Shown in pieces: positions 15,544-58,303 of a DNA stretch of 64,000 bases. The notes beneath the pieces are model-generated. The model searched no databases. It saw only the letters and a list, made by a program, of their open reading frames with translations, and was not told the DNA's origin. Source of the DNA: Octopus vulgaris (lineage: Eukaryota); the NCBI GenBank assembly GCA_951406725.2, contig OX597835.1, forward strand, positions 29,202,001-29,266,000. The letters are read 5' to 3'. Position 1 is the stretch's first letter. Each line of letters starts with the position of its first letter. Made by a program: the position numbers and the translations under genes.

Positions 15544-15840
15544 TAAATTAGAAAAAACCCACCTTCTTTCAATTCAACAATGAAAAAATTAAATTATACC
15601 ATATAGAAAAAAATTACATCTTATAGAAAAATTAAATATAAGATAAAAACATATAACAATGATTAAGTAATGTGCAAAATAATAAATAAAACGTATATAT
15701 TATTTTGCATATTACTCAATCATTGGTATATGTTTTTATCTTATATTCAATTTTTTTCTATAGGATATAATTTTTTTCTATATGGTATAATTTAATTTTT
15801 TCAATGTTGAATTGATAAAAGTTGTTTTTTTTCTAATTTA
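15544..15840. repeat. AT-rich long imperfect inverted repeat (~140-bp arms)
   Basis: TAAATTAGAAAAAAA...GCAAAATAATA is the near reverse complement of TATTATTTTGC...TTTTTTTCTAATTTA. Confidence 0.85.
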
Positions 15841-15849
15841 TATATATAA

Positions 15850-16990
15850 GAAAACAGGCAGTTGTGAGCAATGGAGCCACCTCCAAGGAAACACAAATAG
15901 CAAGCGGTGTCCCACAGGGCACTGTCTTGGGGCCACTGATGTTCATAGTGGCCCTTTCAGACATGCCTTCGGTTGCTACTATGACCACCCTTGCTAGCTA
16001 TGCAGATGACACAAAAGTCTCCCACGCAATACAAAACCCTGAAAATATTGCGCATCTGCAACAGGAGTTGGACACGATATACAGGTGGGCTGAGGACAAC
16101 AAAATGCAGTTTAATGCAGGAAAGTTCCAGGCCCTGCGCTACTGGCACACAAAGGTAAACGACGTGCAGACTGGATACACTGGCCCAGGAAGAATTGCAA
16201 TCCCTGAGTCAAAATCAGTGCGTGACCTGGGCATTGACATGAGCAATGATGCATCTTTCCAAGTGCATATTGCTAATCTGGTGATAAAATGCAGACGGCT
16301 AGCTGGATGGATTCTCCGAACTTTCACAACAAGAGAGAAGGAGACACTGATGGTCCTATGGAAAACATTCGTCCTCAGCCGCTTGGACCACTGCGCCCCA
16401 ACTGTGGTCACCACACAATATAAAACTAACAGCAGAACTCGAATCAATTCAGAGAAGCTACACAAAGAAAATCGTCTCAATGCAAAATATCAGCTACTGG
16501 GAAAGACTGAAGGTATTAAACCTCTTCTCCCTAGAGCGGAGGCGGGAGAGATATGCGGTGATATACATCTGGAAAATCCTGGAGGGTCTTGTCCCAAACT
16601 TTGGCATTCAAAGTTACCCCAACCGCAGAGCGGGGCGTCACTGCATGGTGCCAAGGATTCCAACATCACCATCAAAATACAGGTCCAGATACTGCAACAG
16701 CTTGGGTTTCAGAGGACCACAGCTCTTTAACATCCTCCCTAAATGCCTGAGAGACTTACATGGTGTGGATGTGGGTTTCTTTAAAACTAAACTGGATCTC
16801 TTCTTGTCGGGAGTCCCAGATGAATCTACCTCACGACAGGAGACACAGATGCGGGTAGCAGCATCGAACTCCCTTGTTGATCAAGTGCCACGTATCAGAG
16901 GTGGATTCACAAATTAGTGTAGCTCATTCAGCGGTGGTGCCCCAGCATGGCCGCGGCCTTTGGGCTAAAACATTTTTAAGGATTTAAGGA
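15850..16990 (+). mobile_element. CR1-clade LINE, 5' truncated (RT C-terminal half and 3' end)
   Basis: SGVPQGTVLGPLMF, YADDTK, RDLGI, LERRRERY, GPQLFNILP; one frameshift near 16395; (TTTAAGGA)-type tail. Confidence 0.93.
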
Positions 16991-17049
16991 TATGTATGTA
17001 TGTATGTATGCATGTATATATATGTGTATATACTTATATATATATATAT

Positions 17050-17609
17050 ACTTCCGGTTTTCGTAGGGTAAAGACGTGTGCTTTGCTCTATGATAAGAAA
17101 ACAAAAAGGTTTGCATAAATCGACGAAATAATCGGCGAAAACTCATAAAAAACGTAGAACTTGCTATCTCATAGCGGTCTACTAGGATATAATAGTCAAA
17201 AACCGTAATATATTTCGCTTCAAGCCAAATATAATACACTAAAGTTAATTACGTACGCCAGATTCTCCGTCGAAAAAAGCACGTGGTGACATCTTTTAAG
17301 TTTATTTCTAATCGACTCCAACAAGCGAAAGAACCGTTTTTCTTTTCTTTTTTTGAAAGAAAACATCTTCGTATAGGGAGGACATTTTGGGACTTCTACT
17401 TCTTATAAGATAAGTACCCCTTTTCATTTATTTATTTTCCCGTAATTCAATGTAAGGGCCTATTCTCTGTTTACATTCTTTAATAATCTTTCGGTTTCTG
17501 TTTCAGCTCCGTTACATCTCTCTAAAATTATTCAATTTTTAGATAGGCATATATTTATTTGTTACTTTATATATATATATGTATGTATATATATATATGT
17601 ATGTATGTG

Positions 17610-17670
<61 letters not shown>

Positions 17671-18310
17671 ATATATATATATATATTTACTCAGCCCCTC
17701 AATCTCCCTAAATATATAGACGCGAACATTAGAAGTATAGTCTCAATTAGTTTAGTTTACATTCTTTAATAATCTTTCGGTTTCTGTTTCAGCTCCTTTA
17801 CAGCTCTCTAAAATTATTCAATTTTAGATAGGCATATATTTATAGACGCGAACATTAGAAGTATAGTCGCAATTAATTTAGTTTAGAAGAAAACGTTTGT
17901 AGCTACGGTAAAGTATATACATTTATAATTTACATCCTGTTAATAATCTTTCATTTTCTATTTCAGCTTTCCTCTTAATAATCTTTCATTTTCTTAATCT
18001 TTCATTTTCTATTTCAGCTTCGTAACCTCCTCTCTTTCTTTTCTTTCTCTCTCTGCCTCTTCACTTCTCTCTATCACACCATCTTTCTTCTCTCAGCCGT
18101 TCAATCTTTCCTTGTCTCTTCACTTTTCCACTTCTCTCTCTCACACCATCTTTCCTCTCTCAGCCTCTCAATTTTTCTAAATATATAGTCCCGAACTTTC
18201 TTCTCTTACTCTCTTCTTATCTTCTCTCAGCTCTCAGTCTCTCTAAATGCATAGACACTTTCTTTCTCTATTTCTTCTCTACCCTCTATCACACTATTAA
18301 ATTTCAAATA
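17050..18310 (-). mobile_element. Probable Helitron-like non-autonomous element with internal subrepeats
   Basis: TTTACATTCTTTAATAATCTTTC...TTTCAGCT units at ~17470, ~17757 and ~17930; right end resembles a Helitron TC start on the minus strand. Confidence 0.4.
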
Positions 18311-18319
18311 TAATTAGAT

Positions 18320-21300
18320 AGATAAATAAATAAAATATCCAAAATGTCCAGAACCTGGAGAAGTAACGAATTGGCGTTGTTGCTGAGAGATAATCCGAAC
18401 AACATAATTACAGCTGCGCTGAAGAGCAGTGGATATAAAAGGACAATAGCTCAGATAGAGCGAAAGAAGCAGGAATTTATACGCTTCTATGCACTCATAA
18501 GATCTCACATTGGCACGCTTGATGCCATCTTTGACAACGAACAAAGTAAAGATGGCAAGGATGGAGACGCGGGTGCTGATGAAAGAAGTCACCCCCACTT
18601 GGTAGACACCCAGGAAGAAGATTCAAGTGAGAAACCTGCCCGGGAAGTAAACCCAAGTGCAAGTGCTCCTACCAGCACCAAAAGCGATGGAGATGAAAGA
18701 ACCAAAAAAGAATTAAAAGGAGGAAAAACTAAAAGAAAAACAAAAGGTGAAACAGCCAAAGAAGGAAAAACTATAACTCAAACAAAACCAAAAAAGGAAA
18801 CAGCCAAGGATAGAAGCAAACCTGACTATCCATGTACCAAAAAGGATAGAAACAAACAGTGCACACGAATGTGTAAATTCTACCTGAAAGGTGTCTGCTG
18901 GCATGGAGAGGAAGGTGCAGGCTGCCGTTTTGCACATCAAAGACCCTACCACATGAGCACGAAACAGGTCAGAAACCAACTACCAAAAGGAAAAGGAATG
19001 GACCACGCACCACCTGCCCCAAAACGGAGGTATGCAGATGTGGTGCGTGCTACAAACCGCCAACACGTTATTGAAAGGGCAGCTGCTGAACAAGAATCTT
19101 TTTTTGTGCATGGCACAAAAGATTGTACAGCAGCTAACCTGGCTCCATCAAACTCAAACTCGCGGATGGGACTATCCACAATACACAAGACCGCCACAGC
19201 AAATAGACCCAAGTTGGACACCGCTGGCAACAGCATACACCTCACCTCGATGCTCCTACTGAACATCAGAGGACTGCTAACACTCAGTAACAGGACAAAA
19301 GTCCCGTTCTTGAGAGACTTTGTTGCATGCAATCAAGCCTTATGCATAGCACTTACGGAAACACACCTGAAACCGGACATAGCAGATGCGGAAATACACA
19401 TACCACAGTATGTTGTACTACGGACCGACAGAAAAGAAAGAAGCCATGGAGGAGTTGCTATGTACATCCGTGAGGACCTCACACCCCAGGTCCTTTTGTC
19501 ATACACAAATTCGGTGTGTGACACACTAATTGTACATATAAGGCAACTTGGTGTAGTTATATGTGCTACATATCGCCCTCCAGATGCCCCAAGCCATGTA
19601 GGCAAGTTTGAAGATTGCCTTATAAAAATAGAAGTTCTAGTCACATTAGAACAACACATATGTGTGCTTCTTATGGGAGACTTCAATCTACCCAATGTCA
19701 GATGGCCCGAGGGTCTCTCTCTTCTAGGAATGACACGATGTGAACGAGGACAAGCGAGGTCCCTCCTGAACCTCATCAACACTCTGTACATGGAGCAAGT
19801 AATATTCCAACCAACCAGGGCAGGTAACATACTGGATCTCTGCTTCACAAATAATATGGATCTTATCCATGATGTGAAAGTGACACCGACACTACTCTCG
19901 GATCACAACAAGGTAGAGCTGACCATGTACGGGCCAAAGGAAAGCATGGACATGCAGTCTACAAGAAACTCTCAGAATCTTTCCAGCTTGAACTTCCATA
20001 AGGCAAACTGGAAACAAATTGAGAAAGAGATCCTCAAACAAAACTGGCCTGAATGTCTCTCCTCGCCAGACATTGACATGAAACTTCAACAATTCATGTC
20101 TGTAATACAAGCCATATGCTACAAATGTGTCCCAGAGAGAAAGGCCACTATACACATGAGCAAAATCCCCAGAGAGAGGAAAATTCTAATGAGACGGCGT
20201 ACAAAAGTTTCAAATCGCCTAAACAAACAAATTGAAAGCAGTGAAAAGTCCCGCCTGAAAATAAAACTGTTGGAAATTGAAAAATGTCTGCAACTCTCCC
20301 ATGAAAAAGAAAGAGCAAACAAAGAAGCCTGGGCTATAGACAACATAAAATCTAACCCCAGAGCTTTCTACAGGAATGCCAAAGAAACAGCTACGGTGCA
20401 CTGTAGGATAAGGCCACTCCTTGAAACGGATGGCACACTCACAGGAAATCCAATGAGGGTAAGTGAAATACTAAATTAGCAATTCAAGACTATTTTCACT
20501 CCACCCCTAGGGGATTTTCAAGTCAGCAATCCAACTGACTTCTTTACCACTGCTGGACAAAATATACAAGTGGGCTGAAAAGAATAGCATGCAGTTCAAT
20601 GCTGAAAAGTTTCAAGCTCTATGCTATCAGCACGCAAAACTAAATGCAATACCCAATAAACACACTGGACCTGGTGGGACTGCAATCCCAGAGGCACAAT
20701 CAGTGCGAGACCTGGGTATTTACATGAGTGATGATGCAACCTTTCATGTGCATGTTGCTAAATTGGCAATGAAATGTAGGCGGCTGACCGGATGGATTCT
20801 TAGAACCTTCAGAACAAGAGACCAGGAAACCATGATGGTCCTTTGGAGGACACTTGTCCTAAGCCACTTTGACTATTGCTCTCAGCTATGGTCACCATCC
20901 AGTGTCAAGTTAATCACAGAACTTGAAGCGATCCAACGAAGCTACACGAAGAAGATAGCCATTGTGCAGCATATAAGCTATTGGGAAAGACTCAAGAGAT
21001 TGAGACTCTATTTCTTAGAGCGTAGGTGAGAAAGATATGCCATAATATACATCTGGAAGATCCTAGAAGGACTTGTCCCAAACTTTGGCATCGAGAGTTA
21101 CACAAATGCCAGAACTGGGCACCACTGCATAGTGCCAAGGACTCCAAATTTGCTATCAAGATGTAGGACAAGATACCGTGATAGCCTGGGCTTCCGAGGC
21201 CCACAGCTCTTCAATATCCTCCCGAAGAACCTAAGAGATCTGCATGGGGTGGACGCAGATGTCTTTAAAATGAAACTGGATCTCTTCTTGTCAGGTATCC

Positions 21301-39247: not shown

Positions 39248-41844
39248 TTAGGTTGTCAAGGAAATTCTTGCGGTTTTTAACCTTTAAATTCAGATGCACA
39301 TATCTCGGCTCAAACAAAACTTTATTAATCGAAATAAACACTATCAGAATCAGCACACTTTTGCCAATGCGAAACAAGTTTATTTATGCCAGTAGCGTAA
39401 ATATTCTGCGTTCTGGTGGTGATGAAGTCGTCGAAGACCTGTTTGGCATCGTCTTGGTTTTTGATGCATTTCTCATGCTGGAAGTTATCGTGATGCTTGC
39501 AAAAGTGGTAGTCGTTAGGCGGGAGGTCTAGTGAGTATGGCGGATGAGGCAGAGTTTCGTGGTCCAATTCGTTCAACTTCTGCAGGGTCAGTTGTGCGAC
39601 GTGCGGCCGAGTGTTGACATGAAGAAGAATTGGTCCTTTTGTATTGACCAATGCTGGCCGTTGTTGTCGGAGTTTCTTATGCATTTCATCCATTTGCTGA
39701 CAGTACTTCTCCGCCGTAATGGTTTCGCCTGGATCCAAAAACCTGCGATGAATGAGACCGGCCGCAGACCACCAAACAGTCACCGTGACCTTTTTTGGGT
39801 GCAACTTTGGCTTCGGGAAGTGCCATGGAGTTTCATCGGCGTCCAATCACTGAGCTGAGTGTCGCCGGTTGTCGTAAAGAATCCACTTTTCATCATCGCA
39901 AGTCACAATCCGGTCGAGAAACGGGTCGTTCTTGTTGCGTAAAAGGAGGGAAGATGACACTTCAAAACGGCGTTATTTTTTTTGTTTATTATTATTTTTT
40001 TTTTTTGGTTGTCGTTCAATTCGTGCGGCGCCCATTTCTCAAGTATTTTTGTTTTTCCACTCTCTTTCAAGTGGTTGGAAATTTTCGTACACGTTACGTC
40101 TAATTCAGAAGCAAGCTCTCGAACAGTTGTGCGTGGATTGGCTTCCACTTAGGCTCTTTGTTGACCGTTGTCAACATCCGATGGACAACCACCACGCTTA
40201 TTATCTTCAAGACTCTCGTCACTGTTACGAAATTTCTTGAAGCACCATTGTCCTGTACGTTCATTAGTGATTCCTGGGCAGAAGGTATCGTTAATATCAC
40301 GAGCTGTTTCAGCAGCTTTTCGACCTAGCTTGAACTGGAATAAGAAAATTGTGAAAATTTGCTTTTTGTCCAAGTATTGAACGTTCCAGAAAAAATGGGC
40401 TAATTACTCAAAAAGAAAAAAAGAGTAATACGATTAGATAGAGCGAAAAACGGACTTTAAAAGGATCTATCAGGTCATCCAATAAGTTCTGTCCGAATTT
40501 TGAATAAAGAAAACAAATGATCAAATATTATATTTAATTGAAATTTAATCATCAATATACTTCCCCTGATTATCTATGACTTCCTTCCATCTATCTATTC
40601 ACAAGCTTTTTAATCCCATCAATGTAAAACTCTTTTGGTTTCAAAGAGGAGAACTCTGCAATGTCAGTTTTGACCTCCTCCTGACTTGCGAAAGTTATGT
40701 CCCCCAAATGATTCTGTAAACCACGAAACAAATTGTAGTCTGAAGGAGCAAGGTCGGGAGAATAAGATGGATGAGGAATTTATTCCTAACCAAGCTCTTC
40801 GATCTTCTGTGATGTGATCTTTGCAGTGTGGGGTCGCACATAGTCCTGATGAAACATCACTCCTTTTCGATTCACTAAAGCGGGTCTTTTTTTTCTTCGA
40901 AGCTTGGTTCAAACGCTCTAATTGCTGACAGTAGACTTGAGCATTGATTGTTGCATTAGGTTGGTAACAATTCAAAAGTGAATTACTCCTTTGCAATCCC
41001 ACCAGATAGAGAGAAGAACCTTTTCCCCATGAAGTTCCCTTCTCGGGTGTGGTTGAGCCTTTTCCTTTTTACCAAGCCACTGATTACGACGTTTAACATT
41101 TCGATAGAAGATCCATTTTTCGTCACCAGTCACAATTCTATCCAAAAGGGGTGAAATGAGTTCGCGAGAATAGAGAGAAGAGCAGATGTCAACTCGGGAT
41201 TTGCGGCTGCTTTCGGACAATTCATGAGGCACCCATTTTCCAAGTTTAGGAACCTTTCCAAGTTTAGGAACCTTTCCAAGTTGTTGAAGATGACGATGAA
41301 CAATTGTATGGTTTGAACTAATCTTTATTGCCAATTTTTCAACTGATAATGCAGGATTTTCTTCAAGTAATGCCTCATGAAGCTTATCATCAAACTCAGC
41401 TGGACGTCCTGTCGCTCTTCATCTTCTGAATTTTGCAAACCATCTTCTGCAAGTTCTTTCATTCTAGTATTCTTTTCCATAAACTGAGTGTATGTTTCGA
41501 GTCATTCCTTTTTTGCACTCACAAAGCATTATGTGCATCAAATGCTCTTTGGATACTTCCCTTCTAGAAAGGGTTTTAATCAACGAAATTTTAATTCTAT
41601 TATTCTGTAAAATAATATTTAATTGGTTTAAATGCACACAAATGCATAAAAATATTTTTTACTTCCATTAGACATTCCAAAAAACTATTAAATTTCATTC
41701 AATTTAAAAAAAAAGGTAAAATCGGACAGAACTTATGGGATGACCTGATATATAGTGTTAAAGTAATGTAACGAAAATTCTTTTCAAAATACATCATTTA
41801 AGACTAAAATTTAAAATTCCGCAAGAACTTTCTTGACAACCTAA
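39248..41844 (-). mobile_element. Mariner element A, interrupted by nested mariner B
   Basis: TA-flanked TIRs TTAGGTTGTCAAG / CTTGACAACCTAA; MDKKQI..FQFKLG, WAPHEL, KKVTVTVWW, HPPYSLDL. Confidence 0.93.
40470..41748 (-). mobile_element. Mariner element B, full length and defective, nested in element A
   Basis: TA-flanked TIRs TCAGGTCATCC..AAGTTCTGTCCGA; WVPHEL, IVTGDEKWI, HPSYSPDLAPSDY; 18-bp internal tandem duplication (LGKVPK x2). Confidence 0.94.
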
Positions 41845-56341: not shown

Positions 56342-56486
<145 letters not shown>

Positions 56487-56525
56487 CATGCATATATATA
56501 TATATATGTACGCATACACACACAT

Positions 56526-56556
<31 letters not shown>

Positions 56557-56699
56557 CATATATATATATGTGTGTGCGTGTGAATGTGTATACATACACA
56601 CATATATCTATTTGGTATTTTGTCCTGTACTTATCTCTCGTGAGTTTACGTATTTTTCACTCACTGGTGATGTCTTGTTCTTAATGTGCATTATATATA

Positions 56700-56733
<34 letters not shown>

Positions 56734-56740
56734 CACACAC

Positions 56741-56812
<72 letters not shown>

Positions 56813-56837
56813 TGCGCCTCCACACACCGCCTGTATT

Positions 56838-56882
<45 letters not shown>

Positions 56883-56899
56883 CCTATATGTATATATAT

Positions 56900-56952
<53 letters not shown>

Positions 56953-57100
56953 CATAAGGGGCATCAGCCATCTGAATGTGGCTAGGGACAGGGCGGGGTG
57001 GTTTAGCCCCAGGCGATCATCGACGTCACCAGGAGGGCTGAACCATCTCGGTGTCCTCTAGCCTGCAAAGGGAGATCATTCCCCGAAGATACGGATACTA

Positions 57101-57144
57101 CATACGGACCAGGTTTCGAGGTAATTGCCTCTTATCAACGCATG
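57101..57144 (-). ncRNA. Type I hammerhead ribozyme, U3-A8 core variant (copy 1)
   Basis: Minus strand CAUGCG-UUGAUAA-GAGG CAAUUA CCUC-GAAA-CC U GG-UC^-CGUAUG; all three stems pair; GUC site, cleavage predicted between 57107 and 57106. Confidence 0.88.
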
Positions 57145-57462
57145 GTAAGCACCGTTCTCCGACGAATAACTCTCTCCACAGGCCATATATATAAGGATTT
57201 TCACAGTAAACAAAGTCACTGATGTAGAAAAACCGTTCGAAAACAATAATAAATCTCTAAACGAGATATAAACAGTAACTGCTCTATAACATAAGGGGCA
57301 TCAGCCATCTGAATGTGGCTAGGGACAGGGCGGGGTGGTGGGGGGTGTGTGTTACTGATGCATTTAGCCCCAAGCGATCATCGACGTCACCAAGAGGGCT
57401 GACACCATCTCGGTGTCCTCTAGCCTGCAAAGGGAGATCATTCCCCGAAGATACGGATACTA

Positions 57463-57506
57463 CATACGGACCAGGTTTCGAGGTAATTGCCTCTTATCAA
57501 CGCATG
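57463..57506 (-). ncRNA. Type I hammerhead ribozyme, U3-A8 core variant (copy 2)
   Basis: Identical to copy 1, 362 bp away; cleavage predicted between 57469 and 57468. Confidence 0.88.
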
Positions 57507-57736
57507 GTAAGCACCGTTCTCCGACGAATAACTCTCTCTACAGGCCATATATATAAGGATTTTCACAGTAAACAAAGTCACTGATGTAGAAAAACCGTTC
57601 GAAAACAATAATAAATCTCTAAACGAGATATAAACAGTAACTGCTCTATAACATAAGGGGCATCAGCCATCTGAATGTGGCTAGGGACAGGGCGGGGTGG
57701 TGGTGGTGGGGTGTTACTGATGCATTTAGCCCCAGG

Positions 57737-57780
<44 letters not shown>

Positions 57781-58303
57781 CCTACGACCGCGAGTCCGCC
57801 GCCCTGACCACTGGCCCAGTGATCAGGACAGCGAACTCGCGGTCGTAGGATCGCGGTTTCGATTCCCAAACCGGGCATTGGGAGTGTTTATTGAGCGAAA
57901 ACACATAAAGCTCCACGAGGCTCCGGCAAGGGGTGGTGGTGAACTCTGCCGTAATCTTTCACCATAACTTTCTCTTCACTCTTTCTTCACAGACACGTGT
58001 ACCTTTAAAGGTACACGTGTCTGTGGAGTACTCAGCCACTTGCACGTTAATAAATGAGCTGCGACGTCAGTGGTGCCAAGCTGTATCGGCCTTTGTCTTT
58101 CCCTTGGATAACATTGGTGGCGTGGAGAGGGGAGGTTGGTATGCGTGGACGACTGCTGGTCTTCCATAAACAACCTTGCCCAGACTTGTGCCTCGGAGGG
58201 TAACTTTCTAGGTGCAATTCCATGGTCATTCATGACCGAAGGAGGTCACTATCACAATAGGTGGTGTAAGATTGTAGGTGTGTGAATATACATACACTCA
58301 CAC

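Follow-up and report, generated by a model that had tools for sequence, protein, structure and literature searches.

A dispersed hammerhead retrozyme family of Octopus vulgaris with the insertion structure of Penelope-like elements

A 790-bp tandem array on contig OX597835.1 of Octopus vulgaris represents, with a probability of roughly 0.8, a single insertion of a non-coding, non-autonomous non-LTR retrozyme that would borrow the reverse transcriptase (RT) and GIY-YIG endonuclease of a Penelope-like element (PLE) targeting (TA)n. Judged from its sequence, the element is a new family of the non-LTR retrozyme class, as that class appears in the passages drawn on here from earlier work (PMC7229834; bioRxiv 10.64898/2026.07.22.740005). 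The enzyme and the RNA template of animal retrozyme movement are left open in the corresponding passages of PMC7229834 and PMC7761336. To this class the octopus family adds PLE integration marks on each copy, two fixed, putative priming points embedded in conserved structure, and chimeric insertions involving a PLE of which intact copies persist; the carrier question thereby becomes testable with defined parts. No host function is implied for the family.

A literature search with subscription journals, Repbase and Dfam outside its scope returned no cephalopod retrozyme, no retrozyme-PLE chimera and no retrozyme-targeting LINE; Repbase or Dfam may carry the repeat unnamed or as a Penelope fragment. 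A retrozyme review is without any cephalopod term (PMC7761336), the words hammerhead and ribozyme are absent from the text and supplement of the octopus repeat annotation (PMC13282606), and 235 Rfam hammerhead matches were counted in the giant squid genome, with no analysis in the relevant part of that report (PMC6962438).

The array and its predicted ribozymes

Within the window, that is, the whole 64-kb stretch of DNA that was analysed, the array lies between two (TA)n tracts (Table 1) and is recognised by TRF with a period of 362 and 97% matches. The preliminary description had counted about 2.25 near-identical head-to-tail units in (TA)n; the tandem arrangement and its setting stand, but the units measure 337, 362 and 90 bp and amount to 2.2. 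The only frame of at least 130 aa that touches the array is a (TA)n frame, and no tRNA gene was found in it. No ORF combining RT and GIY-YIG occurs among its translated frames, which sets the array apart from an autonomous PLE. Since (TA)n flanks both sides, any target duplication would be masked. This copy carries neither an inverted arm nor a terminal tail.

Table 1. Features of the retrozyme insertion and its flanks (positions in the window)
Feature	Position	Strand	Remarks
Whole insertion	56950-57740	-	2.2 units; unit positions, numbered from the cleavage site, are 184 at the 3' end (about 56950) and 91 at the 5' truncation
3'-most unit, 337 bp	56952-57288	-	has lost 24 nt + 1 nt
Middle unit, 362 bp, 46% G+C	57289-57650	-
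5'-truncated partial unit, 90 bp	57651-57740	-
Downstream type I hammerhead	57101-57144	-	U3-A8 core with U3 at 57138; helices II (GAGG/CCUC) and III (ACCUGGU); predicted cut 57107/57106
Upstream type I hammerhead	57463-57506	-	identical to downstream copy; predicted cut 57469/57468
Extended helix I around downstream hammerhead	57085-57160	-	counterpart at 57447-57522
Predicted 362-nt cleavage-to-cleavage monomer	57107-57468	-	rod-like fold, z -2.57; paired ends bring both hammerheads together
41-nt "tail"	57244-57284	-	follows the usual 3' end; terminates the inverted arm of other insertions; internal in the window; again at 57606-57646
Conserved helix CAGUAAC (57357-57351) / GUUACUG (57279-57273)	57273-57357	-	encloses GCCA/UGGC hairpin (57320-57303) and the insertion-end point
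Left (TA)n-rich microsatellite, insertion target	56344-56951	.
Right (TA)n	57739-57780	.

The minus strand of each full unit carries the string CAUGCG UUGAUAA GAGG CAAUUA CCUC GAAA CCUGG UC CGUAUG, with a predicted cut after C17. A type I descriptor finds two sites in the whole 64-kb window, both in the array. No site turned up when the window was dinucleotide-shuffled 60 times or when the unit was shuffled 3000 times. Rfam models returned no hammerhead, either at the gathering threshold or at E values up to 10, their matches being microsatellite and hairpin noise. Every core position and helix is intact in both copies, the core, UUGAUAA, having U3-A8 in place of C3-G8. The two complete hammerheads had been placed correctly in the preliminary description and its 362-nt monomer is confirmed (C17 at 57469 and 57107), but the word intact has to be qualified, given the U3-A8 core and a weak helix III.

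On its own, helix III consists of 2 bp on a 3-nt loop. In the folded circular monomer the A15.1-U16.1 pair has a probability of 0.002, far from a stable helix III within one motif, and on the folding model a single hammerhead of the window cannot hold this helix. The ribozyme should act as a double hammerhead rather than as one ribozyme per unit, helix III being too weak in the single motif. Other metazoan hammerheads are known to cleave as dimers by way of a palindromic helix III (PMC4209133; PMC6765202). The minimum-energy fold of the two-unit RNA of the window is a double hammerhead, at -147.1 kcal/mol against -132.4 kcal/mol for two single ones (14.7 lower); in the computed fold the monomer ends pair and thereby set the neighbouring helix III palindromes side by side. 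The same fold is optimal in seven of the ten arrays that were folded, with L039, L130 and L023 preferring other folds. The probability of the pairs between hammerheads is 0.39 for the window, 0.41 for L047, which has a perfect palindrome, and about 0.8 in four other arrays. The window copy would probably cleave as a dimer.

A dispersed superfamily of covarying units

Relatives of the unit were sought in the same genome (2.8 Gb in 227 contigs). A DNA search with the unit gave 1,681 candidates, 40 of which were scored. Pattern searches, whose counts are motif matches rather than insertions, returned 7,424 matches (control 20) for a downstream motif combined with the 3' half of the hammerhead, 2,010 for the tail motif, 1,309 for a helix II of the GAGG/CCTC form and 1,401 for the GGG/CCC form, with 0 for the reversed control of each of the last three; exact copies of the window hammerhead number 14 (reversed-pattern control 0). 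The superfamily is made of units of about 355 bp. Monomers taken from tandem copies measure 353-363 bp, arrays reach 5.6 units, and the family is dispersed as insertions of 1-6 units, not as long satellite arrays.

Twenty-three hammerheads chosen to span the subfamilies were aligned. Of all cells, 92% are paired, and 18 of the 23 pairs change on both sides. None of 500 shuffles scored as high, a test that kinship inflates; slid controls, which are less affected by it, gave 34-49%. Helices I and II are paired in 94% and 99% of cells, and the G10.1-C11.1 pair is present in the window. The 3-8 pair is kept in all 23 sequences (UA 18, CG 3, UG 2). Helix III is seen in eight perfectly palindromic versions (ACCGGT, ACTAGT, ACGCGT, ACATGT, ACTCGAGT, ACTGCAGT, ACTATAGT and ACCGCGGT) and in imperfect forms such as the ACCTGGT of the window, with its central U.U. 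Across the whole monomer, 28 of 69 predicted pairs covary (nine monomers). The superfamily offers a large natural covariation set for double hammerheads, with U3-A8 and C3-G8 cores and eight helix III palindromes.

These data bear out the preliminary description in its main assignment: a non-LTR retrozyme architecture of tandem 353-363 bp non-coding units with 46% G+C and complete type I hammerheads in two consecutive units. The relatives are tandem and their helices covary, the reverse of the non-tandem or non-covarying homologues that it had regarded as damaging, and the extension of stem I that it proposed is real, since it covaries across the 23 hammerheads. Its hairpins fared unevenly: AGCCA/UGGCU is conserved, but GCAUCAG/CUGAUGC is not kept in other subfamilies, where the conserved partner of that arm is GUUACUG in the tail.

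In a sister subfamily (L015-L026) a U.U replaces G10.1-C11.1 of helix II, yet this subfamily has 56 exact matches, so that full activity may be unnecessary for spread; it provides a natural test of the need for cleavage.

The family can be set against two published groups of retrozymes. Like the metazoan non-LTR retrozymes of mussel (350-390 bp), coral and axolotl (Cervera and de la Pena 2020, PMC7229834), it has a short non-coding tandem unit with one type I hammerhead each, a G+C content below 50%, thousands of copies, a highly paired monomer and PLEs in the same genome. It differs from them by the U3-A8 core of most subfamilies, by the predicted need for a double hammerhead, there tied mainly to amphibians, and by fixed PLE-type ends, inverted arms and a tail; neither inverted nor microsatellite appears as a word in the main text of that article. 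Cleavage and circles were demonstrated in that work, whereas the octopus family is known from sequence and folding. With the PLE-derived retrozymes of Li, Clavereau and Pollet (2026, bioRxiv 10.64898/2026.07.22.740005), whose sample comprises 31 vertebrates, 3 insects and 1 coral, it shares two consecutive units with complete hammerheads and a probable PLE partner. Their case for PLEs is built on pLTR homology, with 24 of 57 Xenopus families matching a TE, and on co-occurrence; for the octopus family, whose unit showed no pLTR homology to the PLE families sampled, it is built on insertion structure and chimeras.

Several minor observations concern the superfamily. In the ACGCGT subfamily (L109:1264-2709) the main hammerhead is preceded, about 95 nt upstream, by a second hammerhead-like string (TTGAAAA...GAAAC..GTA). 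A 119-bp tandem array at loci L146-L151 combines the 3' end and tail of the retrozyme with (TA)n and lacks a hammerhead. Pieces of the family occur in assembled contigs of runs under four coded organism labels. Two assembled contigs of run X1 span the upstream cleavage site at a depth of 2-8, which shows neither transcription nor cleavage.

Insertion structure and candidate carriers

To 25 distinct loci among 30 found with the unit, the other five being repeats of the same places, were added four from the helix II pattern; removal of L005, a duplicate of L003, left 28 insertions, a sample biased to long copies. Their 46 segments end at unit position 179-184 (26 segments), at 222-230 (17) or elsewhere (3, one of them at a locus edge). 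There are thus two fixed end points 41 nt apart, neither of which is the cleavage site, and the tail between them measures about 41 nt. (TA)n adjoins 21 of the 26 main ends, an inverted arm is present in 16 of the 28 insertions, and only one of the 46 5' ends falls within 5 nt of the cut. None of the 28 mapped insertions shows an LTR-internal-LTR layout. The main end lies inside the conserved helix of Table 1, whose 3' arm belongs to the tail and in which four of seven pairs show double changes (19 sequences, five of them poorly aligned). This helix is a candidate recognition site.

The Hydra and Neptune branches of the EN+ PLEs (Craig et al. 2021, PMC8557442) display the same pattern: partial tandems, an inverted 5'-truncated arm, a 30-40 bp tail at one end, a bias to (TA)n and a hammerhead. 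The retrozyme copies integrate as PLEs do, with a fixed 3' end, 5' truncation, partial tandems, a tail and a microsatellite target. They differ from these PLEs in having no ORF, and in a 4-bp helix II of canonical size and a long helix I, unlike the minimal hammerhead of PLEs; in the part of that article considered here, non-autonomous elements are of Chlamys type, from a green alga. The minimal PLE hammerheads described by Cervera and de la Pena (2014, PMC4209133) resemble those of the octopus family in the covariation of a U3-A8 core, a variant reported in Schistosoma PLEs, and in a palindromic helix III for dimer cleavage, the difference being that there they are mostly single motifs within PLE repeats and here they belong to a stand-alone tandem unit.

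Two kinds of PLE in the genome could supply the enzymes. Many intact ORFs of Neptune type (781 aa, with RT, a CX4CxxC linker and GIY-YIG at the C-terminus) and of Hydra type (899 aa) were found; both end in (TA)n and both kinds of element contain minimal hammerheads. For the Hydra-type protein, Pfam gave no RT or GIY-YIG match and the CxCX5C linker was not evident; its assignment to Naiad was considered and rejected, the C-terminal endonuclease having the RW, DKT and CxxC..E..N..CxH motifs described for Hydra. Comparison of the unit by blastn (word size 7) with 30 GIY-YIG loci, 16 longer regions and 18 Hydra-type regions revealed no pLTR homology in these best-scoring PLE families, the sole matches being separate retrozyme insertions, and none of the PLE and retrozyme loci sampled held an autonomous element with the same unit, hammerhead or tail.

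Two chimeric insertions connect the retrozyme with a Hydra-type PLE. In L181 (L181:4572-4671) a 100-nt inverted retrozyme arm is joined with short microhomology to the Hydra 5' junction; in L203 (L203:1247-1290) an inverted arm of about 40 nt is joined at the junction point used by the inverted arms of Hydra itself. Both arms end at their tail in (TA)n, no TA separates retrozyme arm and Hydra 5' junction in either, and the retrozyme pieces belong to subfamilies other than that of the window. Alternatively, the chimeras may be separate insertions that have lost the TA between them. They make up 2 of 46 distinct Hydra-selected loci (50 rows) against 0 of 46 GIY-YIG-selected rows, a difference that is not significant and in which 20 Hydra rows came from a query containing the first chimera and many GIY-YIG rows stop short of the 5' end. 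Other retrozyme pieces near PLEs (L079, L097, L193, L199, L020, L027 and L051) were discarded as chimeras, the intervening (TA)n indicating shared targets. On the other side, the 41-nt retrozyme tail is closer in length to those of Neptune (about 30-38 nt) than to those of Hydra (about 150 nt). A Hydra-type carrier is marginally favoured, a Neptune-type one is a possible but less probable choice, and a carrier other than these two has a small chance. The Penelope-type RT invoked in the preliminary description is thus backed by the PLE-type insertion structure and by two chimeras, but the latter are a hint of a Hydra-type carrier, a lead and not a proof.

Among the PLEs themselves, L180 (G000:C1:119513500-119523400) and many other loci hold young Hydra-type families with intact ORFs of about 899 aa, 3.6 kb tandems, long-helix-II hammerheads and tails of about 150 nt. 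At L091:1664-4006 lies a Neptune-type PLE with the many-copy 781-aa ORF, an upstream 333-aa frame and a minimal U3-A8 hammerhead near its 3' end; in a family related to it, GCAA replaces GAAA.

The RNA template and the LINE beside the hammerhead

The positions of the ends suggest that reverse transcription begins at two points half a unit away from the cut and so reads across the hammerhead. Such a reaction could use a circle or an uncut multimer as template, but not a cut linear monomer. In the preferred scheme, read-through transcripts with at least two units would be cut at both sites, yielding a monomer of about 360 nt that a host ligase may close into a circle unable to cut itself; that such circles accumulate is an even bet. 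The PLE enzyme would then bind the conserved structure half a unit from the cut and prime in (TA)n at unit position ~184, with a second priming 41 nt further on that would often give the inverted arm. Copying would extend past the hammerhead site and cover up to several units, and a circle or an uncut multimer would let 5'-truncated copies regain more than one unit.

The distribution of variants bears on which of these RNAs is used. Lineage markers are common to all units of an array, and in four cases variants occur in only part of the units of one insertion, with alternate-unit variants in L038 and L111. These subset variants fit multimers, dimer circles or later local duplication and are not explained by a single monomer circle, and there is some evidence, from the sequences, that RNAs longer than the 362-nt circle, or linear ones, also serve as template. 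One alternative, then, keeps the same element but takes uncut linear or multimeric read-through RNA as the template, the hammerhead pair merely freeing the RNA or limiting array length and monomer circles being minor or absent. The subset variants speak for it, as do a LINE-bearing composite copied through a hammerhead (L224, see below), the spread of the subfamily with altered helix II, the weak cleavage of PLE hammerheads in vitro (PMC4209133) and the lack of cleavage of eight of nine Xenopus dimers. However, 5'-truncated insertions need to get back more than one unit at each round, which a circle supplies directly; young arrays can be identical from unit to unit (L047); covariation (28 of 69 pairs) backs a fold of the whole cleavage-to-cleavage monomer in which the two ends are paired; and circles are abundant in mussel retrozymes of 350-390 bp. 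I regard the uncut template as possible but doubtful.

That only the small ACCUGGU subfamily is attenuated or dead, a passenger of the PLE machinery within a superfamily of working hammerheads, is less probable again. Its palindrome includes a U.U mismatch and its inter-hammerhead pairing is half that of four other arrays (0.39 against about 0.8), it numbers 14 exact copies and its sister subfamily has lost G10.1-C11.1; against this, core and helices are intact in both window copies, the minimum-energy fold is still the double hammerhead, and L047, despite a perfect palindrome, scores a similar 0.41. Growth of a minisatellite out of a PLE terminal repeat, by unequal exchange at the locus and without any mobility of its own, would follow a route proposed for some retrozymes and would account for the two-unit periodicity of variants in L038 and L111. 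It is very improbable and already largely refuted by insertions that number in the thousands, are scattered over many contigs and each carry fresh PLE-type ends, by the divergence of whole units with their structure kept, and by the lack of pLTR homology in the best-scoring PLE families.

A further candidate for mobilisation came from locus L122, where two hammerheads lie 5.65 kb apart. This arrangement was considered as a full PLE and rejected, the enclosed sequence (L122:2198-7472) being a LINE with zinc knuckle, AP endonuclease, RT and zf-RVT that splits a unit just upstream of the hammerhead and is flanked by a 17-bp duplication. A query with the 3' end of the LINE gave 207 candidates; 40 were scored and 30 fetched (L233-L262), the end being anchored in 28 of the 30. 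By BLAST, retrozyme sequence directly follows the LINE 3' end in 25 of these 28 parsed copies; two of the other three run into a divergent retrozyme relative, as judged by eye, and one is followed by 16 matching bases only. The site lies ~25-27 nt before the hammerhead core in several subfamilies, with duplications of 12-17 bp at four loci; the subfamily of the window is absent among the LINE targets seen. The LINE is assigned to the L1/Tx1 group and appears site-specific for the retrozyme. In L224 (L224:525-724 onward) 1 kb of 5'-truncated LINE stands between an inverted arm and the 3' part of the retrozyme, with no target duplication; because its ends are of PLE type, this composite was moved as a single RNA, the LINE being carried along by the PLE-type insertion of the retrozyme.

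The constant neighbourhood (25 of 28 copies) could be read the other way round, the retrozyme being mobilised by the L1/Tx1-group LINE as its 3' partner. But the LINE splits units of several subfamilies at one site with target duplications, which argues that it inserts into the repeat; moreover, retrozyme copies have PLE-type ends and no 3' tail in common with the LINE, and none of the 28 insertions combines a LINE-type target duplication with the LINE 3' end. Mobilisation by the LINE is therefore extremely improbable. Tx1-clade LINEs are known to target other repeats, namely Tx1 in Tx1D, Keno in U2 and Tx1-Mar in Mariner-N4 (Kojima 2015, PMC4494074). The octopus LINE, a putative member of this clade, resembles them by one fixed site in a multicopy element and by target duplications; it differs in that its target is a hammerhead retrozyme, no such target being described in the part of that article considered here.

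A possible, though doubtful, extension of the preferred PLE-borne reading is a three-tier chain. A Hydra-type PLE would move the sequence-unrelated retrozyme through RNA structure, namely the helix over the insertion end; a Tx1-type LINE would have evolved to use a site ~25 nt upstream of the hammerhead, where flanking hammerheads would release its RNA from a read-through transcript; and the composite would even be carried by the PLE. If this chain is real, the chimeras are direct genomic evidence of the enzyme that moves animal retrozymes.

At L235 and L239 the LINE has also hit a divergent retrozyme relative with an altered core, outside the retrozyme library. In the window itself, no host gene is evident from translations judged by eye. 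To the right of the array a strong G+C hairpin (57778-57851) opens a SINE-like repeat that continues to about 58030 and in which no tRNA gene was found. Elsewhere in the window, decayed LINE frames (endonuclease, RT) and pieces of mariner-like transposase were recognised by eye from the translations at 15837-21029 and 39325-41418.
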